From a virus: 64,000 nt of DNA. The translations under genes and the position numbers were made by a program. Below, one piece after another: positions 21,127 to 37,055 of the stretch. How positions within the stretch are numbered: position 1 is the first letter of the stretch; each line of letters begins with the position of its first letter. The notes under the pieces were generated by a model. The model did not search any database, was not told where the DNA came from, and worked only from the letters and a program-made list of their open reading frames with translations. The stretch is taken from positions 1 through 64,000 of the IMG/VR virus record IMGVR_UViG_3300042868_005520; one strand, given 5' to 3'.

Positions 21127-21834
21127 ATGAGCAGACTTGTGATCAAGTTCCCTACGCGGAACCGACCTGAAAAATTCAAAACCGTCTTTTCCCGCTACCT
21201 CACCTTCTTGAGTGGACGGCATGATGTTCGTTTCATCCTGTCAATGGATGAGGATGATCTCACCATGAATAATCCTGAAATGCACCAGTGGATTTCCACT
21301 CGTGCAGAGAACGCACAGATTGAGTGCTTCTACGGGAACTCTAAGTCCAAGATTGAGGCTTGCAATGCCAACCTAGAGGGTGTTGACGGCGATGTACTGC
21401 TGTTGGCATCAGATGACATGGTGCCCGTGCAGATGGGATACGATGATATAATCTTTGGTGCTTTCTCTCAAGCCTTTCCTGACTTTGATGGTGCAATCAA
21501 GTTTTGGGATGGTCTGCGTCCAAAGGAAGACCCGCTGATGACTCTCACAGTCATGGGCTTCCCCCTGTACAAGCAGTTCGGATACATTTACAATCCTGAG
21601 TACAAGTCTCTGTACTGCGACAACGAGCAGACACAGGTTTGTGCTGCGCTGAACAAGTTGCGCCGTTGCGACCTGTGCATTATTCAGCACCAGTGGACGG
21701 GTGAGCCATTCGACACCCTCCACGCTCGTAACGAAAACGCGGAGATGTACGGGGTGGACGGTGAAACATTCAAGCGCAGAGGCGCAAATAAATTTGATAT
21801 GGAGGAAATGTTCAATGCCAGTATCAGCAAGTGA
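21127..21834 (+). CDS. Glycosyltransferase (GT-A fold)
   Basis: KFPTRNRP, D.DD, LASDDM DxD motif, YCDNE. Confidence 0.75.
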   Translation: MSRLVIKFPTRNRPEKFKTVFSRYLTFLSGRHDVRFILSMDEDDLTMNNPEMHQWISTRAENAQIECFYGNSKSKIEACNANLEGVDGDVLLLASDDMVPVQMGYDDIIFGAFSQAFPDFDGAIKFWDGLRPKEDPLMTLTVMGFPLYKQFGYIYNPEYKSLYCDNEQTQVCAALNKLRRCDLCIIQHQWTGEPFDTLHARNENAEMYGVDGETFKRRGANKFDMEEMFNASISK

Positions 21835-22453
21835 AATCAAGTTCAGCATCCTGATGCTGTCCATTCCCGAACGCATCGAATCCATGACCGCTGCGGTGAA
21901 GCATCTACAAGAGCAAGCCGATGCTGTAGGACAAGGCAAGGCGGTAGAGATTCTTGTGCTGTTGGACAATCGCTCCAAGAGCATTTCCGAGAAGCGTAAT
22001 GACCTCCTGCAAATGGCACGGGGTAAGTACATTGCGTTCTTGGACGATGACGATGCAGTCAGCAAGGACTACATGAGTAAGATCCTGACCGCTATTGACC
22101 AAAACGATGTTGACTGCATCTCATTCAACCAGTGGTGCAGCATCAACGGCGAACCAATGGATGTGGAGTTCGGCATCGGAAATCCCCACGGGCAGTTGTG
22201 GCGGGACGAAGACGGCTTCCTTGGTGACATCAAGCGTCCACCGTACCATATGTGCCTGTGGCGCAGTGATATTGCCAAGAGTGAATCTTTTAATCCTGTA
22301 TATGGAGCCAACGGGCAGTCTTCGGAAGACATTGATTGGCTCATGCGCCTGTACCCCAAGATTCAGACGGAACATCACATTGATGACTCGTTGCACGGGT
22401 ACATCTATAGTTCCGAGACAACCACCTCCCTTGTTCCACAGGAGCAGCAATGA
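21815..22453 (+). CDS. Glycosyltransferase family 2
   Basis: SILM.SIP.R, KRN.LL..ARGKYIAFLDDDD, ED.DW motifs. Confidence 0.85.
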   Translation: MPVSASEIKFSILMLSIPERIESMTAAVKHLQEQADAVGQGKAVEILVLLDNRSKSISEKRNDLLQMARGKYIAFLDDDDAVSKDYMSKILTAIDQNDVDCISFNQWCSINGEPMDVEFGIGNPHGQLWRDEDGFLGDIKRPPYHMCLWRSDIAKSESFNPVYGANGQSSEDIDWLMRLYPKIQTEHHIDDSLHGYIYSSETTTSLVPQEQQ

Positions 22454-23142
22454 AAGTAATATCGTTCAGCCTGTGGGGCGACAAGCCCACATACACCGTT
22501 GGTGCGGTCAAGAATGCCGATCTTGCGGCTACGCTGTTTCCTGATTGGACTTGTATGTTCTACTGCTTTAGTTCTGTTCCAAAAGAAATAATTGCAGAAC
22601 TACAATCCCGTAAGAATGTGATTGTACGGATGATAGACGGTGATTATAATTCGGAAGACAGCCGTGGTATGTTCCACCGATTCCTTCCCGCTGATGAAGA
22701 AGGCGTAGAGTACATGATGTCCCGTGACACAGATTCCCGTCTATCCGAGCGTGAGCGGCTTGCTGTTGAAGAGTGGTTGGCTAGTGGAGCCGATCTCCAT
22801 GTTATGCGTGATCATCCGTATCACGGTGCGCCAATACTTGGTGGTATGTGGGGGGTTAAGGGCGGAAAACTCAAGGGTATTGCTCGTGACATGGAAGAGT
22901 TTCAGCCAAGCAGCGATAAGGGACAAGACCAGTCTTTCCTGTGGGAATGGGTGTGGAGCAAGGTTACTGATGATGAAATCACCTGCTGTGTACACGATCC
23001 ATTTTTTCAGAAGGCTCCGTTCCCTACTGGTGCTACTCGTGGAGAAACCAATGGTGGAGTGTGGTTCGTAGGACAAGTCTTTGACGAGAACGACAAATAC
23101 AATAGTGAACAGGACACAAATTTGGTTAGAGATATCCTATGA
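22450..23142 (+). CDS. Glycosyltransferase-like protein
   Basis: ISFSLWG..P.Y..GA..N, RD.DSR, MRDHP.H..PILGGMWG, DQ.FL motifs; island context. Confidence 0.65.
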   Translation: MKVISFSLWGDKPTYTVGAVKNADLAATLFPDWTCMFYCFSSVPKEIIAELQSRKNVIVRMIDGDYNSEDSRGMFHRFLPADEEGVEYMMSRDTDSRLSERERLAVEEWLASGADLHVMRDHPYHGAPILGGMWGVKGGKLKGIARDMEEFQPSSDKGQDQSFLWEWVWSKVTDDEITCCVHDPFFQKAPFPTGATRGETNGGVWFVGQVFDENDKYNSEQDTNLVRDIL

Positions 23143-23510
23143 AAATTGAAGTATCAAATGGTGAAATAGCAGACAAGGTTTCTATTTTGATGATAAAGAA
23201 AGAACGCCTTATTGACGACAGCAAGATCATAAATGTATCAAAAGAACTAGAGGAGATTACTCCTGATTTTTTGATAATAATGAATTTTGATCACCCTCTG
23301 TATCTTGAACTCAAACAAGTAAATTCTTCTCTTTGGGATATAGAAGATCAAATTCGTGATAAAGAACGAGTAAAACTTTTTGACGATGAGTTTGTCTCTC
23401 TTGCTAGAGCAGTATACTTTATAAACGACAAAAGAGCAGAAATAAAGAAGACAATAAACACTATTACGGGATCTTCTTTGACTGAAGAAAAGTCCTATGC
23501 CAAATATTGA
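23139..23510 (+). CDS. DUF6165-like protein
   Basis: SNGEI.DK.SIL.IK, LWDIED.IR, LARAVY..ND.R..IK..IN...GS.L.EEKSY. Confidence 0.8.
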   Translation: MKIEVSNGEIADKVSILMIKKERLIDDSKIINVSKELEEITPDFLIIMNFDHPLYLELKQVNSSLWDIEDQIRDKERVKLFDDEFVSLARAVYFINDKRAEIKKTINTITGSSLTEEKSYAKY

Positions 23511-24192
23511 TGTGAATCCAAATACACTATATGTTCACCATCATCTTGGTCTAGGTGACCATATCATTTGCAATGGTCTTGTCCGATTCCTGTTGAAACA
23601 AACCAATGCTAATGACCTTTGGTTGGTGGTGAAACGCAAAAACTTCAATAATGTCTCTAGAATGTTTTTGGACGATTCTCGCATCAAGTTTATACCCGTT
23701 GACGAGGATAAGAATTTCTACGAACTTCCATTAGAATGGTCTAATGTTCGTTTGGCTAGAATTGGATTTGAGCGATGCCGAGAGACAGATTTTGATGTTT
23801 CATTTTATGACTCCACAGGAATCCCTTTCACGGAAAGATGGAATTCTTGGTACTATCAGCGAGATTTAGAATGTGAACAAACGATGATGCAGGAATTGTT
23901 ATTGCCTGAAAAGTTTGTGTTGGTTCACGATACTTCTAGTGTTGGTATTTTTGATCTAAAGATCAATACCAATTTACCTGTGATTCGTGTTTCGCGTTTG
24001 AACAGTGAGAAAACCATGTTTGATTGGATTGGTGTTATAGAACGAGCAACTGAAATACACTGCATAGATTCGTCTTTCATTCATCTAGTGAATTCTGTTG
24101 ATTTGGTAACCGACTCTTTGTTCTATCACAAAATAAAGTCAAGCAAGATGCAGATTTGTTTTCGTAAAAATTGGTCTGTAATAGAATATTAG
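23497..24192 (+). CDS. Glycosyltransferase-like protein (GT9/GT-B-like)
   Basis: HHHLGLGDHII.NG and EIHCIDSSF motifs. Confidence 0.6.
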   Translation: MPNIDVNPNTLYVHHHLGLGDHIICNGLVRFLLKQTNANDLWLVVKRKNFNNVSRMFLDDSRIKFIPVDEDKNFYELPLEWSNVRLARIGFERCRETDFDVSFYDSTGIPFTERWNSWYYQRDLECEQTMMQELLLPEKFVLVHDTSSVGIFDLKINTNLPVIRVSRLNSEKTMFDWIGVIERATEIHCIDSSFIHLVNSVDLVTDSLFYHKIKSSKMQICFRKNWSVIEY

Positions 24193-24204
24193 GAATATGT
24201 TTTT

Positions 24205-24948
24205 ATGAATAGTAGAATCAATGTATTGATCCCTATGGCTGGTCGTGGAGAACGATTTTCTTCCGTGGGTTATGATCTTCCAAAACCATTAATAGAAATT
24301 AATGGACGACCCATGATAGAATGGGCATTGCGTAGTTTAGATGTGGATTTTTACCTACACAATTTTATTTTTGTTGTACGAGACTATCAGAATGATGAAA
24401 TCAACAATCGGATTGCATCAGTTCTAACCTGTCTTGTGCCAAACAATAAAATTGTAAAAATTGATTATGTCACGGAAGGACCAGCGTGTACTTGCTTGCT
24501 TGTTCGTGATATGATTGACAACGATTCTCCTCTTATGGTTGGAAACTGCGATCAAATTATGAGATGGAATGGATCATACTTTGTAAGCAGTTGTTTAAAT
24601 TCTCCATATGATGGAGTAGTGGTTACCTATGATGAAAGCACTCCAAAAAATAGTTACGCCAAATTGAATTCTCGTGGAGATGTGATTCGAATCGAAGAAA
24701 AAAATGTCATAAGCAATGTGTCTTTGAATGGTATACATTTTTGGAAACACGGTTCGGATTTTGTTAGTTCTGCGGATTCCATGATAGAAAGTAATGAGCG
24801 GTATAACAATGAATTTTATGTTGGACCAACATATAACCACATGATCAAGACGGGAAAGCGAGTTGGCATTTTTCACATACCACGCGAATGTCATAATCCA
24901 GTCGGTGTTCCGAGTGATCTTGGAGACTTCTTGGAAAAAAATAAATGA
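24205..24948 (+). CDS. Sugar nucleotidyltransferase, BcbE-like
   Basis: IPMAGRGERF...GY..PKPLI.I.G.PMI, TEGPA.T, N.DQ, EK.VIS, NNEFYV.P.YN, G.P.DL. Confidence 0.85.
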   Translation: MNSRINVLIPMAGRGERFSSVGYDLPKPLIEINGRPMIEWALRSLDVDFYLHNFIFVVRDYQNDEINNRIASVLTCLVPNNKIVKIDYVTEGPACTCLLVRDMIDNDSPLMVGNCDQIMRWNGSYFVSSCLNSPYDGVVVTYDESTPKNSYAKLNSRGDVIRIEEKNVISNVSLNGIHFWKHGSDFVSSADSMIESNERYNNEFYVGPTYNHMIKTGKRVGIFHIPRECHNPVGVPSDLGDFLEKNK

Positions 24949-25274
24949 AGAAATATAAACTTAAAGATATGCATAGAGGATGGTTAATTGGTGATTTTGA
25001 ACCGTCTGTGCTAAGGACGCAAGATTTTGAGGTGGGTGTTCTCACTCACAAAAAAGGCGAACATTGGGATGAACACTATCACAAGATAGCAACCGAAATC
25101 AATGTGTTGGTTGAAGGAAGTATGACGATAAACGGCATACATATAGAGGTTGGAGACATCTTTATCATTGAGCCAAACGAATCCTCTGCTCCAATTTTTC
25201 TAGAGGATTGTAGAGTGCTGTGCGTGAAAACCCCTTCTGTGATTGGAGATAAATATGCAACTATTCGTGAATGA
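24945..25274 (+). CDS. Cupin-domain protein
   Basis: GW.IGDFEP, HYHKIATE.N...G.M, GDIF...P cupin motif. Confidence 0.8.
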   Translation: MKKYKLKDMHRGWLIGDFEPSVLRTQDFEVGVLTHKKGEHWDEHYHKIATEINVLVEGSMTINGIHIEVGDIFIIEPNESSAPIFLEDCRVLCVKTPSVIGDKYATIRE

Positions 25275-26448
25275 GTCTGCACTTGACAGCGAAAAGTATT
25301 TCGTAGTCACCTACAAGTTGGAGTCCGACAAGAACCTACGCGATGCCGCTTGGAACATTGCCATCGGTCAGAGTGTTGGTAATCCAAATGTGCGGAACCG
25401 TTGGGAGACAGAGGATTTGTTTAAGAATCACTCTTGTCTAATACTCGCTGACGAGATTGAACTACAGAACAAGACATCAGGAGAAGTCAAGATTGCGTTC
25501 CCCGTGATCAACACTGATTGGGAAACAGATGGAATCAGCCATCTGCTGTGTCAGATCATGGGTGGTCATGTTGATATTGACTTGGTGAAGAAGTGCCGCG
25601 TAGTCAAGTTGGATCTTCCACAAAGTGTTACCAAGCACTTCGCAGGACCAAAGTTTGGCATCAGTGGTATGAGGAAGTTCACGGGTCAGTACGAAAAGCC
25701 ACTGCTTGGCGCGATCATCAAGCCCAAGATCGGTATCACTCCAGAAACCCTGTTGGACATGGTTAAAGAACTCGTTGATGGCGGAGTTGACTTCATCAAG
25801 GAAGACGAGATCATGTCAAATCCGTCTTTCTGTCCACTAGACAAGCGTGTGCACATGATTTCAAATTATCTGCGCTCACAATCTCGTAATGTAGTATTTT
25901 GTCATACCATCAACTGTGATCCGCACATTCTTGCGGGTCGTGTTTGCAGAATCCACTCCCTTGGCGGAAACGGTGTACACATCAATGTGTGGAGCGGATA
26001 TGGTGCTTACAACAGCATTCGAAAACTAGATCTTCCAATCTACCTGCATTTCCAAAGCAGCGGTGCAAAGGTTGCGACAAGCGTAAACAATCAGTTCAGT
26101 ATTAGTTGGTCTGTGATTTGTCAGTTGGCTACTCTCATGGGTGTAGACACCATTCAGACAGGAATGGTGGGAGGTTACAGCAATGACGATCCTCAAGAAA
26201 TACTTGAGTGCATCAAGGTGCTACGAGAAGGAAACACAGTTCCTGCACTCAGTTGTGGCTTGCATCCAGGATTGGTTGACAAGATTACATCTCTTGTCGG
26301 AAATGACTATCTTGGGAATGCGGGTGGAGCCATTCACGGTCATCCAAACGGAACATTGTCTGGTGCGAAAGCGATGCGACAATCCGTTGATAAGACATAC
26401 GGAACAGAATATACACACGCAATTGAAAAGTGGGGAAAGATACTATGA
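25255..26448 (+). CDS. RuBisCO-like protein (form IV, RLP)
   Basis: GPKFGI.G.R, IIKPKIG, GGVDFIKEDE (Lys201/Asp203/Glu204 equivalents), SCGLHPG, GGAIHGHP.G...GA.A.RQ; GGAG RBS. Confidence 0.93.
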   Translation: MQLFVNESALDSEKYFVVTYKLESDKNLRDAAWNIAIGQSVGNPNVRNRWETEDLFKNHSCLILADEIELQNKTSGEVKIAFPVINTDWETDGISHLLCQIMGGHVDIDLVKKCRVVKLDLPQSVTKHFAGPKFGISGMRKFTGQYEKPLLGAIIKPKIGITPETLLDMVKELVDGGVDFIKEDEIMSNPSFCPLDKRVHMISNYLRSQSRNVVFCHTINCDPHILAGRVCRIHSLGGNGVHINVWSGYGAYNSIRKLDLPIYLHFQSSGAKVATSVNNQFSISWSVICQLATLMGVDTIQTGMVGGYSNDDPQEILECIKVLREGNTVPALSCGLHPGLVDKITSLVGNDYLGNAGGAIHGHPNGTLSGAKAMRQSVDKTYGTEYTHAIEKWGKIL

Positions 26449-27065
26449 AGTGGAAAGAAGATTTGACTCACGACATTAGATTTGGTTCGGTTGTAGACGA
26501 TATTGACCACCCAATTCCTGAATTGGGATTGAAACCAGCAAGCCCTCCTGCTGAATTCACAGATGATAATCATGCGGCTATTCAAAAGGCTATAGATCGG
26601 TGCAAGAATAAGCCAAAGACATTCCTAGAAATAGGTGTCTGTAGAAACGGTCATCATTCATCGACACACACCATATTTAAGAATCTTCCGAGTGATGGAG
26701 TTTATCTTGGAGTTGATCTTGATGATAAAACCTTCCTAGACAACAAAGAAAATGGAATTCATACTATAAAAACATCTTCTTCCAACTACGAAGAAGTAGT
26801 ATCTAAATTGAAATCTCTTGGTGTGGATAAGTTGGATTTTATATTTATAGACGGATGGCACAGTATCAATCAGGTTTTATCTGATTGGGAATACACCAAT
26901 CTTCTTTCTGATGGCGGTGTTGTTGCTTTACACGATACTACTGCTCATCCTGGTCCTTTCTTCTTTATGAAATTTTTGAATAGATCCACATGGGAAGTGC
27001 ACCCTAATCTGTGTCCAAACGATCACGGTTTGGGGTATTGCTTGAAGAATCAGGATACAAAATGA
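26445..27065 (+). CDS. Class I SAM-dependent methyltransferase (Methyltransf_24-like)
   Basis: FLEIG, FIFIDGWHS, L..GGVVALHD motifs. Confidence 0.82.
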   Translation: MKWKEDLTHDIRFGSVVDDIDHPIPELGLKPASPPAEFTDDNHAAIQKAIDRCKNKPKTFLEIGVCRNGHHSSTHTIFKNLPSDGVYLGVDLDDKTFLDNKENGIHTIKTSSSNYEEVVSKLKSLGVDKLDFIFIDGWHSINQVLSDWEYTNLLSDGGVVALHDTTAHPGPFFFMKFLNRSTWEVHPNLCPNDHGLGYCLKNQDTK

Positions 27066-28060
27066 TAAAGGTTCTATTTGTTACTGCGGTTGGAAATGCC
27101 AAATCATATGACTACTTAACAGATGGTATTCTTCACGGACTGAAGACTCGAAAAGATAAGTTTGATGTATATGAGTGCTTTGGTATGAAGCATCTGTATA
27201 AAAATTATCCAACTGATGATAGTCCTGCTTTGTTCGGTAGAAGAAATCTGAATGGTGGACCAAACGAACTAGGTTTGGGTCTGTGCATCAAGATGGTTGC
27301 TGACAAATTTTTTGATGTGATTGTTTTTGATTGGAGAACATCGAGCAATTTTTGGAACAATCATGGGCATTGTCCGTATTGGAAAGAAACAGTTGCAATA
27401 CAAAATGTTGCATTCTCTGCATATCCAAAAGAGAAGATTGTATTCTTGGATAGTAGCGATGACAATGTTGGGAAGTATGAGATGTTTACTCAACCGTTTG
27501 TTGGTAAATCAACATACTTCAAACGAGAATTGTATATTGATGATCCATACTTTCATCCCATAGACATACCTTTTGCTGCGGAAAAGGGAAGCCCTTTGAT
27601 TTTGTCTAATTCTAAAGACAAGTATCTATCCCATGTAATACCAGAAAAAAAAGATACCTATATTTTTAAAGATGAATCTTCTTATTATGGAGATTACGCA
27701 AAGTCTTATTTCGGGGCAACATGGAAAAAGATTGGTTGGGGATGCTATCGCCATTCCGAGATCGTGTTTGCTTCATGTGTTCCTTTGTTTCCAGATATTA
27801 CTCACTGCCCTATGCGAACACTGACTTTTTTTCCAAAAAGCCTTTTTCAAGAGGTTCTTAATCGCGGTGTGTTGCGTAATACCGCCACAAAGGTACAGAA
27901 GTATTCGGATATGTACACTTATGAAAACATTGAAATTAACGAATCTGCTATTGACAAGTCCTGGTATGATGATATTCTTTACCAAGTATATGATCACGCT
28001 CACAAAAATCTCACCACTACAGCAATGGCAGATTATGTTCTGTCTAAACTAGACATATGA
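27062..28060 (+). CDS. Glycosyltransferase-like protein (GT-B)
   Basis: DYL.D...HGL, YFKREL, YY.DY..S.FG.T.KK.GW.C.RH.EI....C.P motifs; context. Confidence 0.6.
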   Translation: MIKVLFVTAVGNAKSYDYLTDGILHGLKTRKDKFDVYECFGMKHLYKNYPTDDSPALFGRRNLNGGPNELGLGLCIKMVADKFFDVIVFDWRTSSNFWNNHGHCPYWKETVAIQNVAFSAYPKEKIVFLDSSDDNVGKYEMFTQPFVGKSTYFKRELYIDDPYFHPIDIPFAAEKGSPLILSNSKDKYLSHVIPEKKDTYIFKDESSYYGDYAKSYFGATWKKIGWGCYRHSEIVFASCVPLFPDITHCPMRTLTFFPKSLFQEVLNRGVLRNTATKVQKYSDMYTYENIEINESAIDKSWYDDILYQVYDHAHKNLTTTAMADYVLSKLDI

Positions 28061-28878
28061 AACAATCAATTGTATTTCGCGGTAGTATATGCAATGACCG
28101 ATACAAGACTAATTTTTTGAAAGACTCTGTTTCGGAACTGCGTAAATGGTTTTTTGGTGAAATCATAATTTCTACATGGCATGGTCAAGAAGAAAATGCC
28201 AATTGTATCAGTGGTGTTGATAAGATTGTTTACACTCAAGACCCCGAATCGGGATTGGTTGCACATAATCGGAGGCAGCATATTTCGTTCAGAGAAGGAG
28301 TAAAGGCTAGTTCTGGCGATGTTGTTTTTGTGACACGAACAGATTGTCTTCTGACGAAGGATCCATTTTATTTAATGGACTGCAATCAAGATCATGATAC
28401 TCGTTTTCGTTTTGTTAGCAGAAGAATGGTTGCTGGAAACATGATGACATTTTCCCCAAACCAAGGTTCTTCTTCTAGTGAAAAGTGGGACGGCTATTTT
28501 AGACTGGGAGATTGGTTTCATATGGGAATGCGTAAAGACATTCTTTTGTGGGGAGATGTTTTAGAATTTTCAGAACAGTTAAATGCAGATGTGAATGGAA
28601 TACAGACACCGAATCGTTCGGTTGAACAGTTGTGGCTGATGTCTGCCATAAATAAATACAGCAAAGACAAGATAGATTTGCAGAAATATCAGTTTATGGA
28701 TGTATATGATGCATGGGCTGGAATTCTAAATAATTTTAGAGTAGTCAATACCCGATCCACTGCGGGAGTACACAACTTAAACTGGAATCATAAGTCCGAG
28801 TTTCATCCTCTGTATGTGACAGAGGATGAATACAATACTGCTTTTTTAAATCGTTATGGAACTATCATAAAAGGATAA
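28057..28878 (+). CDS. WavE-like polysaccharide biosynthesis protein
   Basis: IVFRG.I, EIIISTW, N..RQ..S...G, RTD, D.F..G, EQ motifs. Confidence 0.65.
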   Translation: MKQSIVFRGSICNDRYKTNFLKDSVSELRKWFFGEIIISTWHGQEENANCISGVDKIVYTQDPESGLVAHNRRQHISFREGVKASSGDVVFVTRTDCLLTKDPFYLMDCNQDHDTRFRFVSRRMVAGNMMTFSPNQGSSSSEKWDGYFRLGDWFHMGMRKDILLWGDVLEFSEQLNADVNGIQTPNRSVEQLWLMSAINKYSKDKIDLQKYQFMDVYDAWAGILNNFRVVNTRSTAGVHNLNWNHKSEFHPLYVTEDEYNTAFLNRYGTIIKG

Positions 28879-28880
28879 TC

Positions 28881-29801
28881 GTGGAAACCAAAGACTTCCT
28901 GTTTTTCAACTATTCGTGGGTGGTTAACTCTACTTTCTACTTTGAGTCCTTTGCCAAGAAAGGACACAGCATAGACATTGTTACAGAAAAAGATCTCCAT
29001 TCTTTTGTTCCGCAGAACAAGTACAAAAATGTTGTGCTATATCTCCATGAACCGTGGAGTCTTCCTATAACTGATCACCTAATAAACACATACTTCAACG
29101 ATGCTGTTTTGATTCAGCATGATGATACGGATTTTGAAGATGTTCAATATTGGAGCACTCGCGTTCCTGATCTGGTGATGCAGAGGGAATATACAGACAA
29201 TACTAAAAATCCTCGTGGTTCTGCTATGGGTGCTTTCCATTTCCCCATTCATTCGTGGTACAATCCGTCCATAACAGAAAAACCGTATGATCTGTGCTTC
29301 CTGGCAAACATGACGCATCCTAGACGAGTCATGTTTGCCAGGAAGATGATGGAGTTGATGAACGGTAGACTAAATCATTTGGTTTGGAAAGTAAACATAG
29401 AACCTCATGTGAATACATCTTCTCAGTTCTACAATAAGAATGCCTTCAGTGAGCAGAAGGAAGACACAAAGATAATTGTTAACAAGACCAAGATTGGACT
29501 GAACGATTTTGGAAATTCTTATGAACAGTGGAGAACATGGGAATACGCAAGTGCTGGTACGGCAATACTTATGCCAAAGATGAAAACCAAGTGTGTATCA
29601 GAAGGCTTTATGCCTTTCAACGAATACACTGTATTTCGTGATGATTACTCTGATTTGGAGGAGAAGATACTTTTCCTGCTAGAAAACAATCGGTATATGG
29701 AATACGGCACGATGGCTAAAGAAGCCTATGATAAAAGACACAATCCCGAAAAGTGTTTTGAGTTTTATTACGAGCAAATTATGAGGTATGCCAAACAATG
29801 A
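28881..29801 (+). CDS. Glycosyltransferase (GT1-like/CgeB-type C-terminus)
   Basis: KIGLN..G......RTWE....G..ILM, DLEEKI..LL C-terminal domain. Confidence 0.65.
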   Translation: METKDFLFFNYSWVVNSTFYFESFAKKGHSIDIVTEKDLHSFVPQNKYKNVVLYLHEPWSLPITDHLINTYFNDAVLIQHDDTDFEDVQYWSTRVPDLVMQREYTDNTKNPRGSAMGAFHFPIHSWYNPSITEKPYDLCFLANMTHPRRVMFARKMMELMNGRLNHLVWKVNIEPHVNTSSQFYNKNAFSEQKEDTKIIVNKTKIGLNDFGNSYEQWRTWEYASAGTAILMPKMKTKCVSEGFMPFNEYTVFRDDYSDLEEKILFLLENNRYMEYGTMAKEAYDKRHNPEKCFEFYYEQIMRYAKQ

Positions 29802-30238
29802 ATATCATTTCTCATCGTGGAAATCTATATGGACGAGATCCTTCACAGGAAAACTCTACACAGTATATTCAAAAAGCACTTGAACACGGATTTGATGTTG
29901 AGATAGATGTTTGGTATAACACCGATCTAAAGCAGTTTTATCTTGGACATGATATGCCAACATATTCCGTGACAACTTCTTTTTTAAAAATTGATAGGTT
30001 GTGGTGTCATGCTAAAGATGAAGAATGTTTTTCTAAACTTCTTGATCTTGGGGTGAATTGTTTTTGGCATGAAAATGATAGATTTACACTTACATCACAC
30101 GGCATTGTTTGGTGCTATCCCAACAATTGGTGTGAGCGAGGAGTAACCGTGGTTTTTGATCCACCTTCATCTGAAATACTTTCAAAAAACATTTTTGGTA
30201 TATGTGTTGATGATCCTGTGAATTGGAGAAAAATCTAG
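29798..30238 (+). CDS. Glycerophosphodiester phosphodiesterase-like protein
   Basis: IISHRGN..G, EN, GFDVEIDVW, LGHD, LWCHAK, FWHE.D..TLTS, GIC.D. Confidence 0.8.
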   Translation: MNIISHRGNLYGRDPSQENSTQYIQKALEHGFDVEIDVWYNTDLKQFYLGHDMPTYSVTTSFLKIDRLWCHAKDEECFSKLLDLGVNCFWHENDRFTLTSHGIVWCYPNNWCERGVTVVFDPPSSEILSKNIFGICVDDPVNWRKI

Positions 30239-30852
30239 TGAAACCATTTATAGTATCATCTCATTACAATGAGGATTTGTCTTGGATTGTGCATCAAACA
30301 GAGTACAATTATAAGATATACACAAAGAATCACAATCCATCAGATTTCATTCCGAAAGACAAGATTGTTTACATTCCCAATAAAGGGAACGAAGCGTCTT
30401 CTTATTTGTGGTATATCATAAACAACTACGATTGTCTTCATGAGAGCGTTGCTTTTGTTCATGGTCACTATACGGCATGGCATCAGAATATGGACATTCT
30501 GACCGCTATAAGAAAATACGATGGCTCGGATTACATGACTCTGAATGATCTTTCGCGGAGAAATGTGTTTCACGATAATTGTGGGATAGAAGGAAACGCT
30601 ATAGGAAATTGGAATTGGGCTAGGCAAGGCATGATTGAGATTGGTATGGAAGTTCCTATTCCAACAAGACTCGAATTTACTCAGTGTGCTCAGTTTGTTG
30701 TTACAGCCAGCAGGATACGGTGCAATAGTTTGAATTTCTATAAGCGTTGTATGGATTGGTTGATGAGGACTCCATTTCCTGACGCTATCTCTGGTAGAGT
30801 TTTTGAGCATATCTGGCATTACATAATGACACACAAGGAAATTGAAAAATGA
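30238..30852 (+). CDS. DUF3431-like protein
   Basis: S.YNEDLSW, PNKG.EA..YL.YII.NYD.L, F.HGH...WH, AQF.V, FE..WH; GTG start with GGAG RBS (track starts at 30223). Confidence 0.75.
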   Translation: MKPFIVSSHYNEDLSWIVHQTEYNYKIYTKNHNPSDFIPKDKIVYIPNKGNEASSYLWYIINNYDCLHESVAFVHGHYTAWHQNMDILTAIRKYDGSDYMTLNDLSRRNVFHDNCGIEGNAIGNWNWARQGMIEIGMEVPIPTRLEFTQCAQFVVTASRIRCNSLNFYKRCMDWLMRTPFPDAISGRVFEHIWHYIMTHKEIEK

Positions 30853-31943
30853 TGTATGACTATATGATCGTTGGTTCTGGTCTATTTGGGGCAATATTTG
30901 CCAGACAGATGACTGATGCGGGTGCACGGTGTCTTGTTGTAGACAAACGCAAGCATATTGGTGGAAACTGCTATACCCGTAACGAAGGTGGAATTCATGT
31001 TCACGAATACGGTCCACATATATTTCATACGAGCAGTGACCGCGTATGGGAATACATGAATCGGTGGACTCGGTTCAATCATTTTGTGTATCGCCCCCGT
31101 GTCATTCATGGAGACAACCTATACTCGTTCCCCATCAACCTGTTTACACTATATCAGTTGTGGGGGGTAAAGACACCTCAAGAAGCACAAAACAAATTGG
31201 CTCAAGTGCGGCTCACCATTCCATCCCCGTCAAACCTAGAAGAATGGGTACTGTCCCAAGTGGGAGAAGAAATTTACGAGAAGTTCGTGAAGGGCTACAC
31301 CATGAAGCAGTGGAACCGCGATCCCAAGGATCTTCCTGCGTCCATCATCAAGCGACTTCCCATTCGGCTCACTTATGATGACAATTACTTTGATGACAAG
31401 TATCAAGGTATACCTGTCGATGGATACACGCCCATCTTTGAAAAACTATTGAGTGATATTCCCGTTGAAACAAGTGTAGACTATCTTAAAGATCGTGAGC
31501 GTCTTGAGAATATGGCAAAAAAGATTGTATACACGGGAGCCATAGACGAATTCTTTGGCTGCGATCTAGGCAATCTTGAGTGGAGAAGTCTGAGGTTTGA
31601 ACATCAGACACTTCAGATTCCTGACTATCAGGGAGTAGCAGCAATAAACTACACCGATGCCACGATCCCATATACTCGCGTGGTGGAACACAAGCATTTC
31701 ATATTTGGAAAACAGGATCATACTGTCATCACCCACGAGTACCCACAGAATTGGGATAACACAAAGGAAAAGTTTTATCCAGTGACTGACGATAGAAATA
31801 ATGAACTGTATATTCAGTATAAGAATAGGATTGACACCGAGAGATACATATTCGGTGGTCGTTTGGCGGATTACAAATATTACGATATGCACCAAGTTGT
31901 AGGGTCTGCCCTAACACGCAGTGAAAAGGAAATTGAAAGATGA
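30849..31943 (+). CDS. glf: UDP-galactopyranose mutase
   Basis: IVGSGLFG FAD motif, HIGGNCY, YGPHIFHT, KYQGIP..GY, GRLA.YKYYDMHQV. Confidence 0.96.
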   Translation: MMYDYMIVGSGLFGAIFARQMTDAGARCLVVDKRKHIGGNCYTRNEGGIHVHEYGPHIFHTSSDRVWEYMNRWTRFNHFVYRPRVIHGDNLYSFPINLFTLYQLWGVKTPQEAQNKLAQVRLTIPSPSNLEEWVLSQVGEEIYEKFVKGYTMKQWNRDPKDLPASIIKRLPIRLTYDDNYFDDKYQGIPVDGYTPIFEKLLSDIPVETSVDYLKDRERLENMAKKIVYTGAIDEFFGCDLGNLEWRSLRFEHQTLQIPDYQGVAAINYTDATIPYTRVVEHKHFIFGKQDHTVITHEYPQNWDNTKEKFYPVTDDRNNELYIQYKNRIDTERYIFGGRLADYKYYDMHQVVGSALTRSEKEIER

Positions 31944-32881
31944 AAGCATTAGTAACAGGTGGAGCGGGTTTTATTGGATCGAATTTGGTTGATCGGCTAA
32001 TTTTGGAAGGTCACGAAGTCACAGTGATAGACAACGAATCATCTGATGCCCATGATCACTTCTATTGGAATTCAGCAGCAAAAAACTACAAGTACGATAT
32101 CAATGATTACACGATGGTTCGTGAATTGTATGAAGGAATAGACATGGTGTTCCATTTTGCTGCTGAGGCTCGTATTCAGCCGTGCATTGTTGATCCACTA
32201 AAGGCTGTGAAATCCAATATGCTTGGTACTGCTAGTGTGTTGCAGTGCGCTCGTGTATGCGGTGTAAAGCGTGTCATCTATTCATCCACATCATCCGCTT
32301 ATGGACTGAAGAATACTCCTCCTCTTGTTGAGACAATGCCAAACGATTGCCTTAACCCATACTCGGTGACCAAGACAGGTGGTGAGGAATTATGTAAAAT
32401 GTTCTCCAAACTGTACGGCTTAGAGACAATCATATTTCGATACTTCAATGTGTACGGAGAGCGTCAGCCACTGCGTGGACAATATGCTCCAGTGATTGGC
32501 ATCTTCTTGCGTCAACGGGCAGCAGGAGAATCCATGACCATTGTTGGTGACGGAGAACAGAGGAGAGACTTCACCCATGTTAGCGATGTGGTTGAAGCCA
32601 ATATCAAGGCTTCTCAGTTTATTGCTCCTCGTTATAATATTACCGACAATGGCTCGTGTCAGACTTATCGAGGATGGGAATGGGGTCAGATTTACAATAT
32701 TGGAACAGGAACCAATCATTCAGTGAATGAGATTACTGCATTTATGGGTGGTCAAACTGTAAATATTCCTCCACGCGCAGGGGAATCCCGAATCACTCTT
32801 GCTAATGCAAATAAAGCAAAGGAACATCTTGGATGGATTCCCCAAGTTCGTCTTGAAGAGTGGATTGCCAAGCATAAATAA
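31940..32881 (+). CDS. NAD-dependent nucleotide-sugar epimerase/dehydratase
   Basis: TGGAGFIGS, SSTSSAYG, YSVTK (YxxxK), RYFNVYG, GDGEQRRDF. Confidence 0.95.
   Translation: MKALVTGGAGFIGSNLVDRLILEGHEVTVIDNESSDAHDHFYWNSAAKNYKYDINDYTMVRELYEGIDMVFHFAAEARIQPCIVDPLKAVKSNMLGTASVLQCARVCGVKRVIYSSTSSAYGLKNTPPLVETMPNDCLNPYSVTKTGGEELCKMFSKLYGLETIIFRYFNVYGERQPLRGQYAPVIGIFLRQRAAGESMTIVGDGEQRRDFTHVSDVVEANIKASQFIAPRYNITDNGSCQTYRGWEWGQIYNIGTGTNHSVNEITAFMGGQTVNIPPRAGESRITLANANKAKEHLGWIPQVRLEEWIAKHK
32873..32880 (+). promoter_or_regulatory. Putative late promoter CATAAATA before GT2-TPR gene
   Basis: One mismatch from T4 late box TATAAATA; AAGGAG RBS follows. Confidence 0.6.
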
Positions 32882-32901
32882 CCGTACAAGGAGATCGTGA
32901 A

Positions 32902-34110
32902 ATGTCTACAGTATGCCTCTCAATGATCGTTAAGAATGAAACGCACATTATCCATGAATGCCTCAATTCAATGTGGCAAAACATTGACTATTGGGTGATC
33001 GTGGACACAGGATCCACAGACGGAACCCAAGACCTTATCCGCACCTTCTTTGCAGAGAAGGGAATTCCTGGCGAACTCATTGAGAAGCCGTGGGTAGACT
33101 TTGGCTACAACCGTAGCGAAGCCCTTGCTCTCTGTGATGGCAAGGCAGACTACGCTTGGATGATTGATGCCGATGACAAGATCACAGGCAATTTTGTGTA
33201 TCCCAACGGCAAGAATCTCGTGCACGATGCGTATGCTCTCAAGTGTGGACGAGACGGATGCGTGTGGTGGCGTAATCAAATCTTTAAAACGGGTATTGGT
33301 TGGAAGTATGTCGGCGTTCTCCACGAGTACGCCCATTGCGAAAAGCAGCCACTAAATCAATTCCGTATTGAGGGTGATTATGCTCTTGAGGCGCGTACAC
33401 TTGGTGCGCGTAATGTAAATATTACACAGGTAGAGAAGTACACAAAGGACGCAGAGATGCTGCTCAAGGCTCTAGAAACAGAGCCAACGAATTCTCGCTA
33501 CCAGTTCTACCTTGCTCAGTCGTACTTTGACTCACAGCAGTGGGACAACGCCATTGCAGCGTACTACAAGCGCGTAGAGATGGGTGGATGGGAAGAAGAG
33601 TGCTACTACTCCTTGTTCCGCATTGCCCTGTGTGAAATCTCAAAGAATTCTGATTGGTCAATTGTTCAGCAGAAATTCCTTGACTCGTATGACTACCGTC
33701 CGTGCCGCGCAGAACCGCTTCACGCCATTGCCAGATTCCTTCGCATGAACGGTCGTCCACGCGCTGCGTACCTGTTTGCGAAGGAAGCCGCGCAGTTGCC
33801 GTACCCACAGCAGGACATTCTCTTCATTGATACAAATGTGTACAAGTGGATGGCATTGGATGAACTAGCCGCTACGGCATTCTTTACCCACGATTTCAAG
33901 ATTGGCTACTCCGCTTGCGAAACCCTGCTAAAGCAGAGCCGCTTGCCAGAGAGTGAAATTGAACGAGTTCAGAAGAACCACGCTGCGTACCTTGAGAAAG
34001 TCAAGGAAGTGGATGCACTGACACAGAAACTCGCCAAAGACACCAAGATGCCCCCGCTTGCTCCCGTGCTAAATACAAAGCAGCACACCTTTAAAAAGCG
34101 GAGAAAGTAA
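32902..34110 (+). CDS. Glycosyltransferase family 2 with TPR repeats
   Basis: LSMIVKNE...I..CL.S, VDTGSTDGT, IDADD, GVLHE; C-terminal helical repeats (FYLAQSY, AIAAY). Confidence 0.9.
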   Translation: MSTVCLSMIVKNETHIIHECLNSMWQNIDYWVIVDTGSTDGTQDLIRTFFAEKGIPGELIEKPWVDFGYNRSEALALCDGKADYAWMIDADDKITGNFVYPNGKNLVHDAYALKCGRDGCVWWRNQIFKTGIGWKYVGVLHEYAHCEKQPLNQFRIEGDYALEARTLGARNVNITQVEKYTKDAEMLLKALETEPTNSRYQFYLAQSYFDSQQWDNAIAAYYKRVEMGGWEEECYYSLFRIALCEISKNSDWSIVQQKFLDSYDYRPCRAEPLHAIARFLRMNGRPRAAYLFAKEAAQLPYPQQDILFIDTNVYKWMALDELAATAFFTHDFKIGYSACETLLKQSRLPESEIERVQKNHAAYLEKVKEVDALTQKLAKDTKMPPLAPVLNTKQHTFKKRRK

Positions 34111-34535
34111 TGGCATCAGGATACTACGATATTAACGCACAGCAGTACTCCACATTTAATTTTCATGTGGAGTATTACGACGAGAACGGCAATCGCGTAG
34201 ACTTAACCAATTACACCGCACGATTCCATGTGCGTCCGTTTGCCAATAGTTCGGTGAAGTACATGGAGATTAGTACTTCGGGTGTTACTAGTGGTGGTAT
34301 CACAGGTGAGTACACAGGCACTGCTGGCATTAGCGGAGCGGGTCGAGTCTACATGAACAAGGGCGAGACGGGTGCGGCTCTCACGGGAGGCATTCTTATT
34401 ACTGCCGATGCCACCACAATGGGATACATTCGAACAGGCTCGTGGAAGTACTCTATTGATCTTGTTCAAAGCGGTGTAACTACCGATGAATTGCTGTACG
34501 GTCAATTCATTGTTACTCCCAAAGCCACGAGATGA
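34110..34535 (+). CDS. Hypothetical, probable virion beta-sandwich (BppU N-terminal-like)
   Basis: VDLTNYTARFHVR, Y.I.L, LL.G.F.V.P pattern; CTAAATA at 34069. Confidence 0.5.
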   Translation: MASGYYDINAQQYSTFNFHVEYYDENGNRVDLTNYTARFHVRPFANSSVKYMEISTSGVTSGGITGEYTGTAGISGAGRVYMNKGETGAALTGGILITADATTMGYIRTGSWKYSIDLVQSGVTTDELLYGQFIVTPKATR

Positions 34536-35299: not shown

Positions 35300-35701
35300 A
35301 TGACACGAGACGAACTACTAGCATTTCACGCAGAACTCTGCACCGAAGCCCGTGATCTGATGAGCCTAAAGAACCGCGACTACGCTGGCAAGGAAGGCAC
35401 AGAGCCGTTTGCCAACTTTACCCGCGTGGAGTCAATGGGCATCTGCAAGACCGAACAAGGTTTCATGGTGCGCCTTACCGACAAGATGAGCCGCCTGTCT
35501 TCCTTTGTACACGCAGGAAAAATGAATGTACAGGACGAGTCATTTATGGACACCTGTGTGGATGTAATTAATTATATGGTTTTACTTGCTGCATACTTAA
35601 AGGATAAAGAAGCGCAGAAGCAAGACGCTCCCACAATCAAATATACAAGCACACCGATTCCTGTTGATTTAAATATAGGTGGTGGTAAACTAGGGGCATG
35701 A
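35300..35701 (+). CDS. Nucleotide modification-associated domain 1 (Nmad1/DUF1599-like, MazG-like fold)
   Basis: KN.DYA, PFANF, VRL.DK.SRL, ES..DT..D..NY motifs. Confidence 0.8.
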   Translation: MTRDELLAFHAELCTEARDLMSLKNRDYAGKEGTEPFANFTRVESMGICKTEQGFMVRLTDKMSRLSSFVHAGKMNVQDESFMDTCVDVINYMVLLAAYLKDKEAQKQDAPTIKYTSTPIPVDLNIGGGKLGA

Positions 35702-36630: not shown

Positions 36631-37055
36631 TTCTTGCTACCGTAATTTGCTCTGCCGCCACCTTTAAGGATGTAACGGTTCGCCCCCGCGAGAATCCTGT
36701 GAAGATTATTGATTTTCACACCGTTGACCAATTGCTTGATGCCATGTACACTGTTGAGTCCAACCGTGGACTGATTCTTGTGGGAGATGAGGGTAAGGCG
36801 ATTGGTCCTTATCAGATTTGGAAGGCGTATTGGCAGGACGCTGTGGAGTTTGACAAGTCTATTGGTGGGGAATACCAAGACTGCATGAAAAAGGCGTATG
36901 CCGAAAAGATTGTTCGTGCGTATTGGAAGCGGTACGCTCCCAAGAGTGCAACGCTTGAGCAGTTGGCACGAATTCATAACGGTGGTCCGCGTGGACATCT
37001 GAACCCGAACACAATTAAGTATTGGAACAAGATCAAAAAGGAATTAGTCAAATGA
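36618..37055 (+). CDS. Lysozyme, i-type/destabilase-like, with hydrophobic N-terminus
   Basis: VES, GPYQI...YW.DA, ARIHNGGP.G, T.KYW motifs. Confidence 0.82.
   Translation: MLAVILATVICSAATFKDVTVRPRENPVKIIDFHTVDQLLDAMYTVESNRGLILVGDEGKAIGPYQIWKAYWQDAVEFDKSIGGEYQDCMKKAYAEKIVRAYWKRYAPKSATLEQLARIHNGGPRGHLNPNTIKYWNKIKKELVK

Follow-up and report, generated by a model that had tools for sequence, protein, structure and literature searches.

A gene for a RuBisCO-like protein (RLP) in a T4-like phage, together with its neighbours encoding a nucleotidyltransferase (NT), a cupin and a miniature GDPD-like phosphodiesterase, belongs to a linked set that recurs far beyond chance and resides, in viruses and cells alike, in glycan-building islands. 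The recurrence of the set across 80 viral and 46 cellular loci, the existence of proteins in which RLP, NT and cupin form one chain, and its absence from other RuBisCO forms support the view that the four genes would act as one functional unit. We consider it probable, though well short of assured, that this unit is a conserved biosynthetic cassette, in which a sugar or ketol phosphate derived from the RLP would be activated with a nucleotide and passed to the transferases of the surrounding island. An earlier sequence-only reading of the window (the whole 64,000-nucleotide stretch of DNA analysed) had proposed RLP, cupin and NT as a module making a sugar donor; the module stands as a unit of glycan islands, but the peripheral role assigned to the GDPD-like gene does not.

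The locus and its enclosing island

Eight genes, all on the + strand, lie head to tail between positions 24205 and 30238, with most neighbouring ORFs overlapping by a few bases. Every gene that the sequence-only reading had named there (NTP-transferase, cupin, RLP and methyltransferase in series, and a GDPD-like gene near them) is present.

24205..24948, + strand: sugar/alcohol-phosphate nucleotidyltransferase (NT), 4evw family (Pfam NTP_transferase)
24945..25274, + strand: minimal metal cupin of 109 aa, which may be a sugar-phosphate isomerase or epimerase (profile, fold)
25255..26448, + strand: form-IV RLP of the NT-linked clade, 397 aa (Pfam RuBisCO_large, 4.7e-37)
26430..27065, + strand: predicted SAM-dependent O-methyltransferase, accessory member (Pfam Methyltransf_24 / CmcI-like)
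27062..28060, + strand: GT-B-like putative glycosyltransferase (start ATG 27062; structure neighbours)
28057..28878, + strand: WavE-like protein, candidate transferase for the cassette product (Pfam WavE, 1.4e-11; Atlas WavE clusters)
28881..29801, + strand: GT1-like glycosyltransferase (Pfam Glyco_trans_1_2, 2.6e-06)
29798..30238, + strand: miniature 146-aa GDPD-like phosphodiesterase, core partner of the NT (motif, profile, fold)
21127..34535, + strand: enclosing glycan island, between regA and a dUTPase-like gene (Pfam scans)

The RLP ORF spans 25243-26448 and opens at TTG 25243; the likely start is ATG 25255, with GGAG upstream. No Pfam match was obtained for the ORF at 27062-28060, whose structure neighbours in the Atlas bear Glyco_trans_1_2 or RXYLT1_C (TM 0.67-0.75). 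An O-methyltransferase homologue follows the RLP immediately on its 3' side in 28 of the 80 viral loci, and the GT1-like protein has a homologue in seven. Pfam scans of the wider island recovered GT2, DUF6165, DUF3431, UDP-galactopyranose mutase, an epimerase/dehydratase and a GT2-TPR protein, and G+C falls to 0.38-0.41 over 24-32 kb, compared with about 0.46 in the flanks. A SAM decarboxylase gene lies elsewhere in the window, at 37022-37447. The statement that no HAD phosphatase is visible in the window holds, and can be extended: homologues of HAD, SIS, kinase, class II aldolase and RibB proteins are all missing from the entire 113-kb contig.

The island sits inside a replication and nucleotide-metabolism block, with gp45, gp44, gp62 and regA on one side and a dUTPase/dCTP-deaminase-like gene on the other. 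This position is what might be expected if the cassette supplied a sugar donor for hypermodification of the phage DNA, as in the glucosyl- or arabinosyl-hmC of T-even phages. Such a role is nevertheless very improbable, given that the same cassette is found among LPS- and capsule-type genes in the chromosomes of SAR11, Verrucomicrobia, Legionella and DPANN, and that its neighbours in the window (UDP-Galp mutase, WavE, GT2-TPR) are typical of glycan work.

Linkage in viruses and cells

Co-occurrence of RLP homologues with NT and cupin genes, on which the earlier proposal had been staked, is evident in the viral loci, 77 of 80 of which have an NT, and 54 of 80 a cupin, no more than 5 kb from the RLP. 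The GDPD-like gene, described earlier as lying nearby, is found within the same distance in 69 of 80; it belongs to the core and recurs more regularly than the cupin, which about a third of cassettes lack. WavE-like genes (fam4, fam8 or WavE), proposed earlier as transferase partners, are indeed enriched, occurring less than 5 kb from the RLP in 62/80 viral loci as against 0/24 control loci. Among 46 cellular loci with an RLP identity of at least 35%, from SAR11, Verrucomicrobia, Patescibacteria, DPANN archaea, Elusimicrobia, Azospirillum, Turneriella and Legionella, the NT lies within 1.5 kb of the RLP in 41, and a mini or canonical GDPD is present in 24; in DPANN loci it is a canonical 240-aa GDPD that stands beside the NT. 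No NT accompanies the other, more distant RuBisCO forms (0/24 loci).

Could such counts arise without any shared chemistry? Neighbourhood in hypervariable islands can partly mirror co-transfer, but the gene fusions argue against this as the explanation. RLP, NT and cupin are joined in one chain in two metagenomic proteins (P0121 and P0122); in P0123 the RLP is fused to a GT-B-like domain corresponding to the C-terminal half of the 27062-28060 protein; and in L051 the mini-GDPD is fused to a WavE-like fam4 protein. The wider neighbours, in viruses and cells, include GT2, GT1, GT25 and WavE proteins, epimerase/dehydratases and O-methyltransferases. In all four Legionellaceae loci, which probably reflect a single evolutionary event, a LicD-family phosphotransferase (1e-42) adjoins the RLP-NT pair divergently, and the GDPD is absent.

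Phage RLPs as such are not new. In 2019, Jaffe, Castelle, Dupont & Banfield (PMC6389311) described 'Form IV-like' RLPs in phages (Myoviridae) and Beckwithbacteria, among them divergent proteins that miss several catalytic residues and are encoded on T4-like/myovirus contigs sampled in many environments, and left their function open. Their clade is almost certainly the NT-linked clade described here, a Beckwithbacteria relative of the phage RLP (L094) being 50% identical to it; the NT/cupin/GDPD cassette, the fusions and the SAR11, Legionella and DPANN carriers do not figure in the portion of the paper considered here.

Active sites of the encoded proteins

The RLP scores under every NCBIfam equivalog cutoff, including those for MtnW (161 vs 409 bits) and OiaX (151 vs 700 bits). 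It retains K175, K177, K201, D203, E204, S379 and G381, the first five of which are invariant across the clade, and it carries G for E60, G for N123, Q for H294, Y for K334 and C for G380, all five replacements being invariant in 125 clade members. Because the Mg/carbamate centre and K175 are kept while E60, N123, H294 and K334 are lost, the clade is predicted to consist of enolising enzymes unable to fix CO2, in line with the earlier view of the RLP as an enolising enzyme. With the characterised RLPs, namely the DK-MTP-1-P enolase MtnW/YkrW, the MTRu-1-P 1,3-isomerase of R. rubrum and the 3-oxo-isoapionate-4-P decarboxylase OiaX, it shares the RuBisCO large-subunit fold, the carbamylated-Lys/Mg2+ site (K201, D203, E204) and K175, so the expected chemistry would be enolisation of a phosphorylated keto-sugar; it differs from them invariantly in Gln at 294, Tyr at 334 and Cys at 380. 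To our knowledge, every RLP characterised so far works in catabolism or salvage and on substrates with terminal phosphates, and no nucleotidyltransferase is linked to any of them.

That record could be taken to favour a salvage or auxiliary metabolic role, in which the GDPD would act on a phosphodiester of the host to release a phosphorylated metabolite, which RLP and cupin would process as in methionine salvage or another catabolic shunt, with the NT recycling the product. The RLP-cupin pair does recall MtnW and the acireductone dioxygenase MtnD of methionine salvage, and the polyamine pathway fed by SAM decarboxylase, which the window encodes, yields methylthioadenosine. We nonetheless regard this role as unlikely: the RLP is far from the MtnW and OiaX cutoffs and lacks H294, homologues of MtnA, MtnB, MtnK and MtnX are absent from the cassette, the NT has no part in such shunts, and the cassette lies within glycosyltransferase islands, with fusions to transferase-like domains.

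Neither the cupin nor the mini-GDPD sequence has a Pfam match by itself. A profile of 37 cupin sequences matches PDB cupins, H44, H46 and E51 are invariant in the alignment, and the AF2 model (pLDDT 92.7) adopts the cupin fold, its best Foldseek match being 7zvm, a minimal archaeal phosphomannose isomerase; this match to a sugar-phosphate aldose-ketose isomerase suggests that the cupin may remodel a sugar phosphate, as had been proposed. The mini-GDPD contains the motif HRG...EN...E-D...HD, with H6, E18, N19, E35, D37 and H51 invariant and R7 nearly so; its profile reaches the Pyrococcus GDPD 7e0v (3.7e-4), and its AF2 model (pLDDT 97) matches the GDPDs 1zcc and 1v8e in Foldseek with a probability of 1.0.

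The NT passes the Pfam NTP_transferase cutoff (28.2 vs 21.2 bits), has the nucleotide-binding motif PMAGxGSRF...K and belongs to a family with invariant G13, G15, R17, K27, D116, E165 and K166. By profile the family matches, over its full length, PDB 4evw (4e-35), an uncharacterised nucleoside-diphosphate-sugar pyrophosphorylase from Vibrio cholerae solved by structural genomics, which has no assigned function and so gives no clue to the NT substrate. HddC (6e-10), GMPP and RmlA follow at about 1e-9; with GlmU, these closest characterised relatives are all sugar-1-phosphate users, and LicC, TarI and IPCT do not appear among the 50 PDB matches of the profile.

The proposed product and its attachment

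What might such a cassette make? What is observed is gene linkage, from which we infer each of the following chemical steps. The RLP would take a ketose phosphate out of the pentose-phosphate/Calvin pool of the host and enolise it by means of its carbamylated Lys, Mg2+ site and K175, so that a carbonyl would be moved or epimerised without carboxylation. The cupin, where encoded, might add another metal-dependent conversion, either aldose-ketose or epimer, the NT would couple the product phosphate to NMP to give NDP-X, and the methyltransferase, in a subset of loci, may O-methylate NDP-X. A WavE-like or other transferase would place X on a glycan of the virion, the host surface or elsewhere, and the mini-GDPD would make, open or trim a phosphodiester at this final, glycan-transfer stage. 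The linkage, the fusions, the invariant active-site pattern, the glycan context, the swaps in the RLP slot described below and the cupin fold match are consistent with this scheme. Against it, a kinase, mutase and phosphatase for an anomeric sugar-1-phosphate are absent from both cassette and contig, the cupin is not encoded in about a third of cassettes, and nucleotide-sugar pathways have no usual place for a phosphodiesterase. Since the nearest characterised relatives of the NT all use sugar-1-phosphates, either host enzymes would help or the NT would act on a non-anomeric phosphate.

Cultured cyanophages bear on this choice. In the cyanomyoviruses S-SM2, Bellamy and S-CAM9, which carry GDP-heptose or other NDP-sugar modules, the same NT family (33-43% identity) pairs with the same mini-GDPD (37-40% identity) in the same type of glycan island of T4-like phages, and the RLP is missing. 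In its slot are found a bona fide DHBP synthase, RibB (5e-65), fused to the NT in S-SKS1, a mutase-like HAD_2 domain fused to the NT in S-CAM9, or a class II aldolase, SIS isomerase and kinase in Bellamy and S-SM2, none of which the present contig has.

In the original form of the proposal, RLP and cupin yield an unusual ketose or branched sugar, a putative BcbE/KfoE-like NT activates it, and a WavE-like protein transfers it, with the GDPD-like protein at the periphery. It draws on the same linkage as the cassette, on the resemblance of the NT to sugar-1-phosphate nucleotidyltransferases, on the enrichment of WavE-like proteins and on the fact that E. coli K4 needs KfoE to give its capsule the fructose branch (PMC8858990). 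In this form it is doubtful, as the contig has no anomeric-phosphate route, the GDPD-like gene is core and branched-chain chemistry has left no sign.

A sharper form of the cassette explanation, which does not contradict it, is that the NT, like LicC, TarI and IPCT, uses a phosphate of the RLP product that is not anomeric to give a CDP-ribitol-like NDP-ketol or NDP-polyol, to be attached as a phosphodiester by LicD in Legionella and, in phages and SAR11, by the GDPD-like protein together with a WavE-like one. We hold this to be a genuine, if tentative, possibility. LicD beside the RLP-NT pair in the GDPD-less Legionellaceae loci and the NT-RibB fusion of S-SKS1, whose synthase makes a product with a terminal phosphate only, suggest that the cassette product may be passed on phosphodiester-linked and not as an ordinary glycosyl. 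The terminal phosphates of known RLP substrates, the want of a mutase or kinase in the cassette, the canonical GDPDs of DPANN and the fact that a GDPD, a type that handles alcohol-phosphate diesters, is the most constant partner of the NT all point the same way. Conversely, the NT profile lies nearer HddC, GMPP, RmlA and GlmU, the HAD_2 domain of S-CAM9 and the heptose-pathway set of Bellamy and S-SM2 imply anomeric activation in those phages, the Legionellaceae loci probably count once, and we know of no precedent for a GDPD performing synthetic phosphotransfer. As in the LicC/LicD and TarI/TarJ pathways, whose CDP-choline, CDP-ribitol and CDP-alditol donors serve to attach decorations through phosphodiesters, the cassette places in glycan loci an NTP_transferase-fold enzyme next to one that handles phosphodiesters, with LicD itself in Legionellaceae; unlike them, it lacks a conserved reductase or choline kinase, its NT is closer to sugar-1-phosphate enzymes, and most carriers have a GDPD-like protein where LicD would be. 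Whichever phosphate is used, the linkage of the cassette genes in phages, bacteria and archaea points to a candidate role in which the RuBisCO fold may serve in the building of sugars.

The cassette and its glycan island

The window's phage is T4-like, and its source contig is 113 kb long. RNase H, the gp45 clamp, the gp44/gp62 clamp loader and RegA are encoded at 17.3-21.1 kb, and the closest DNA relatives of this block are Synechococcus and Prochlorococcus myoviruses (65-77% identity, in short stretches). Bounded by regA and a dUTPase-like gene, a single-strand glycan island of 13 kb (21.1-34.5 kb), whose core G+C drops to 0.38-0.41, encodes the cassette and, according to Pfam scans, GT2, DUF6165 and DUF3431 proteins, a UDP-galactopyranose mutase, an epimerase/dehydratase and a GT2-TPR protein. 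All the genes named in the sequence-only reading are present in the window:

24205-24948, + strand, nucleotidyltransferase (NT); Pfam NTP_transferase, 28.2 bits (cutoff 21.2)
24945-25274, + strand, cupin, 109 aa; family alignment, profile and AF2 model
25255 (ATG) to 26448, ORF from TTG 25243, + strand, form-IV RuBisCO-like protein (RLP), 397 aa; Pfam RuBisCO_large
26430-27065, + strand, O-methyltransferase (Methyltransf_24 / CmcI-like); Pfam
27062-28060, + strand, GT-B-like protein; Atlas structure neighbours
28057-28878, + strand, WavE-like protein; Pfam
28881-29801, + strand, GT1-like protein; Pfam
29798-30238, + strand, short GDPD-like phosphodiesterase (mini-GDPD), 146 aa; catalytic motif, profile and AF2 fold

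The DUF3431 gene (7e-33) lies immediately 5' of the UDP-galactopyranose mutase gene (both in 30223-31943), and the mutase implies that the phage-built glycan contains galactofuranose. Past the island, genes for a UvdE UV-damage endonuclease, a destabilase-type (i-type lysozyme-like) protein and a speD-like SAM decarboxylase stand in a row (35698-37447). Searches of cultured phages (INPHARED) with the cassette region, as DNA and as protein, and with the RLP returned no match.

The NT, which ends 307 bases upstream of the RLP, belongs to the sugar-phosphate nucleotidyltransferases of Pfam NTP_transferase and keeps the G-x-G-x-R motif and the catalytic lysine of its family (G13, G15, R17 and K27 are invariant). 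A profile of 42 sequences found as its best PDB match an uncharacterised Vibrio pyrophosphorylase (4evw, 4e-35), followed by HddC, GDP-mannose pyrophosphorylases and RmlA at about 1e-9 to 1e-7. The sequence-only reading had called this enzyme BcbE-like and named KfoE among proteins of that kind; KfoE is reported to be necessary for fructosylation of the K4 capsule (PMC8858990).

The two smallest partners were classified by motif and fold. No Pfam family matches the window cupin by itself; its family profile matches PDB cupins, and its AF2 model (pLDDT 92.7) retrieves small cupins with Foldseek at probability 1.0, the best match being the minimal Thermococcus phosphomannose isomerase 7zvm. Motif 1 (H-x-H...E) is invariant among 37 homologues (H44, H46, E51), and the same alignment shows no invariant histidine in motif 2; motif 1 together with the double-stranded beta-helix places the protein in the cupin superfamily. 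The mini-GDPD, likewise, does not reach the gathering score of Pfam GDPD, and only two of the 41 members of its family get as far as an E-value of 0.033. Its family nevertheless has the HR...EN...E-D...HD motif, with H6, E18, N19, E35, D37 and H51 invariant and R7 nearly so, in profile alignment with a Pyrococcus GDPD (3.7e-4), and the AF2 model (pLDDT 97) matches GDPDs in Foldseek with probability 1.0 and a TM score of 0.54-0.67 on the query. By catalytic motif and fold it is GDPD-like, with a shortened barrel of about 60% of the usual length.

The RLP clade and its active site

The RLP begins most plausibly at ATG 25255, which follows a GGAG and gives the 397 aa usual for homologues. It matches Pfam RuBisCO_large (4.7e-37) and RuBisCO_large_N (2.6e-4) and, in the PDB, form III and RLP chains (1e-38 to 1e-30). 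Its residues were compared in an alignment of the clade (79 viral and 44 cellular sequences) that also included 13 RuBisCO homologues of greater divergence, all from CPR/DPANN genomes. In spinach numbering, K175, K177, K201, D203, E204, S379 and G381 are kept in every clade member, and E60 and N123 are invariably replaced by Gly, H294 by Gln, K334 by Tyr and G380 by Cys; the first four replaced positions of the spinach enzyme, E60, N123, H294 and K334, correspond to G42, G108, Q271 and Y312 of the window protein. The 13 distant homologues, by contrast, have the canonical E60, N123, H294, R295, H327 and K334. With K175, K201, D203 and E204 kept and E60, N123, H294 and K334 replaced, the carbamate/Mg2+ centre for enolisation is retained, but the clade has lost the residues that CO2 addition and the second phosphate site require. 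The window RLP thus lacks the catalytic set of bona fide RuBisCO (forms I-III) and, combining the N- and C-domains of the large subunit with a non-carboxylase site, falls in form IV; judged by its sequence, it is not a carboxylase.

Characterised RLP functions were also considered. The protein scores far below the models for the DK-MTP-1-P enolase MtnW (161 bits vs 409 for NF007095; 133 bits vs 514 for TIGR03332) and for the 3-oxo-isoapionate-4-P decarboxylase OiaX (151 bits vs 700 for NF042437), and well under the NCBIfam cutoff for type III RuBisCO too. To our knowledge, every RLP of known function serves salvage or catabolism; a salvage role for this one, methionine salvage included, is unlikely.

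As a working definition, the NT-linked RLP clade comprises proteins with GQSxGNP, G108, KPK, KEDE, Q271-x-S-G, G-Y312 and S-C338-G (window numbering) and an adjacent NT of the 4evw type, and the window RLP has all of these. G42, Q43, G46, N47, P48, G108, K160, K162, K186, D188, E189, Q271, S273, G274, G311, Y312, S337, C338 and G339 are present in 100% of the 79 viral and 44 cellular members; the signature residues S44 and E187 reach 98% in the cellular set. One viral RLP frame (L046:8010-9176), as delimited, has four in-frame stops and may be a decayed copy or reflect a frameshift or an assembly error.

Gene linkage in viruses and cells

The sequence-only reading had staked itself on RLP homologues co-occurring with NT and cupin genes, and so they do. 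Among 178 RLP loci found in IMG/VR, 80 were retained (RLP identity 54-94%), and partners were counted by tblastn and family HMMs within 5 kb of the RLP. An NT lies within that distance in 77/80 (within 1.5 kb in 70), a GDPD-like gene in 69/80 and a cupin in 54/80; a methyltransferase was found in 28/80, a count that covers up to 8 kb of retrieved flank instead of 5 kb. Two of the three NT-less loci end abruptly beside the RLP. The two main gene orders are NT-cupin-RLP, followed downstream by the GDPD, and GDPD-NT-RLP, which lacks a cupin. Cassettes of the latter type repeatedly have radical-SAM/SPASM proteins and a 2x[4Fe-4S] ferredoxin within a few kilobases (L018:3468-4376, L028:9961-10953, L061:6479-6826). 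Recurring neighbours over the viral loci are FkbM and TylF-type methyltransferases, GT1, GT2, radical-SAM/SPASM proteins and phage replication genes. That the cassette serves DNA modification is, in our view, unlikely.

A scan of prokaryotes with one genome per species gave 70 RLP loci, 46 of them at or above 35% RLP identity, and 41 of these 46 have an NT no more than 1.5 kb from the RLP; of the other five, four are short or truncated contigs. No cassette partner was found at any of the 24 loci below 35%, which represent other RuBisCO forms (0/24). Carriers include Pelagibacter (a complete chromosome), many SAR11 single-cell genomes, a Verrucomicrobia chromosome, Patescibacteria/Beckwithbacteria, Woese-, Micr- and Nanoarchaeota, Elusimicrobia, Azospirillum, Turneriella, Francisellaceae and four Legionellaceae. 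The immediate cellular neighbours (n=147) are foremost GT2 (15), epimerase/dehydratases (8) and canonical GDPD (8), with methyltransferases, GT25, WavE, PMT_2 and DegT among the others. In Candidatus Pelagibacter sp. Uisw_094, of a cultured SAR11 lineage, the locus lies at 114-135 kb of a complete chromosome. Upstream of its RLP (58% identity) are a mini-GDPD, at 1.2 kb, and an NT, at 6.6 kb, and a gene for a cytidylyltransferase of CMP-sugar type (CTP_transf_3) is adjacent.

The four Legionellaceae loci (Legionella nautarum, L. maceachernii, L. drozanskii and Tatlockia) have no GDPD-like gene within 10 kb of RLP-NT, and in all four a LicD-family phosphotransferase gene (Pfam, 1e-42) is divergent from RLP-NT (L126:8636-9487, - strand; L125, L127, L128). 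Since tblastn with the Legionella LicD over the loci gave matches in these four only, a general complementarity of 'GDPD or LicD' is not established.

The same genes also occur fused. Two metagenomic proteins of 813-817 aa (P0121, P0122) carry RLP, NT and cupin in a single chain, and in a third of 724 aa (P0123) the RLP is joined to a domain related to the window's GT-B-like ORF (27062-28060), specifically to its C-terminal half. The Atlas structure neighbours of that ORF include RXYLT1_C, which is the ribitol-phosphate xylosyltransferase family. At L051:8206-9276, a mini-GDPD (residues 1-158) is fused with fam4 (residues 128-356), the commonest uncharacterised neighbour family. A putative cupin-RLP fusion in L039 proved to be two separate genes.

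Fam4 and a second neighbour family, fam8, are about 240 aa each, without a Pfam match, and their profiles found no match in the PDB. They have in common only a YD-x-(V/I)I-x-x-R-x-D motif (hhalign probability 94%), which in fam4 reads YD-x-VI-x-x-R-x-D and is WavE-like, and fam4 matches the window's WavE-like protein weakly (8.6%). Counted together, fam4, fam8 or WavE is encoded no more than 5 kb from the RLP at 62/80 viral loci and at 0/24 control loci, an enrichment that fits the earlier suggestion of a WavE-like transferase using the product.

What the cassette may make

What occupies the place of the RLP where it is missing? The RLP was not found in cultured Synechococcus phages, many of which encode the same NT family (33-43% identity) and the same mini-GDPD (37-40% identity). 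S-SKS1 (HQ633071.1, L081:7001-8428) has a 475-aa fusion of NT and RibB (DHBP synthase, 5e-65), annotated in its record solely as DHBP synthase, with genes for a small HAD-like protein and a transaldolase-like protein just downstream. In S-CAM9 and its relatives, the NT is fused to a HAD_2 domain and accompanied by a second HAD_2, and Bellamy and S-SM2 encode a class II aldolase, a SIS isomerase, a kinase and a phosphatase-fused NT; a homologue of the window cupin is present in Bellamy and SynMITS9220M01. The window's phage thus has NT and mini-GDPD in common with S-SKS1, S-CAM9, Bellamy and S-SM2, and an RLP where they have RibB, HAD_2 or aldolase-SIS-kinase enzymes, no homologue of which (RibB, HAD_2, class II aldolase, SIS isomerase, kinase) was found anywhere on its 113-kb contig. 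Because NT and mini-GDPD stay constant while other sugar-phosphate enzymes fill the RLP slot, the pair seems to be the fixed 'activate and deliver' part, and the RLP, with or without cupin, one of several swappable makers of a phosphorylated precursor, most of them drawing on pentose-phosphate intermediates.

The sequence-only reading had the RLP and cupin remodel a ketose phosphate, the NT activate it and a WavE-like or other glycosyltransferase transfer it. The genes, their linkage and fusions, the glycan-island context, the kept enolisation site and the cupin and GDPD-like folds are observed and support this outline in part; the chemical steps we only infer. The RLP would isomerise or epimerise a ketose phosphate, the cupin would interconvert aldose and ketose or epimers, the NT would form NDP-X, and a transferase would install X. 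In general terms, we lean towards a cassette that makes a nucleotide-activated, RLP-derived product for glycan transferases.

How X would be attached depends on which phosphate the NT uses. The cassette encodes no route to an anomeric phosphate, the only phosphate of the RibB product is terminal, the NT's constant companion handles phosphodiesters (GDPD-like), and LicD stands in all four GDPD-less Legionellaceae loci; together these suggest a LicC/LicD-like logic, with X-phosphate attached through a phosphodiester. The nearest characterised relatives of the NT, however, take anomeric sugar-1-phosphates, with which the HAD_2 and heptose-type cassettes are also consistent, and we hold the phosphodiester variant only tentatively. 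The same relatives and cassettes favour a plain glycosyl donor, a variant that the missing anomeric route, the terminal phosphate of the RibB product, the GDPD-like partner and the Legionellaceae LicD make doubtful. The most far-reaching form of the phosphodiester variant, in which the phage-spread clade makes a new keto-sugar or ketol phosphate that is nucleotide-activated and attached by phosphodiester to surface glycans by a GDPD-like transferase (LicD in Legionella), is improbable as a complete account.

Jaffe et al. 2019 (PMC6389311) describe about 80 RLP-related sequences from phage contigs, part of them Myoviridae, that cluster with Beckwithbacteria, and leave their function unclear. 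In a literature search whose coverage left many subscription journals outside, we found nothing linking an RLP with nucleotidyltransferase, cupin, glycosyltransferase or nucleotide-sugar/glycan genes. The cassette forms a genuine and widely distributed pathway, as yet uncharacterised, that centres on a known yet unexplained RLP clade, and the glycan-cassette reading offers an explanation for a clade that has lacked one since 2019. With four small soluble proteins, natural triple fusions and cultivable carriers (L. nautarum, L. drozanskii), the pathway is testable. If the reading is true, an RLP clade tied to an NT in glycan islands would be the first biosynthetic role of the RuBisCO fold, and the cassette would probably yield a new activated sugar; were attachment by a GDPD transferase through a phosphodiester true as well, the RLP reaction, the activated donor and a synthetic role for the GDPD fold would all be new. 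SAR11 are the most numerous marine bacteria, and the cassette, abundant (178 IMG/VR loci, SAR11) and moved by phages, may shape those surface glycans that determine how phage and host recognise each other in lakes and oceans.
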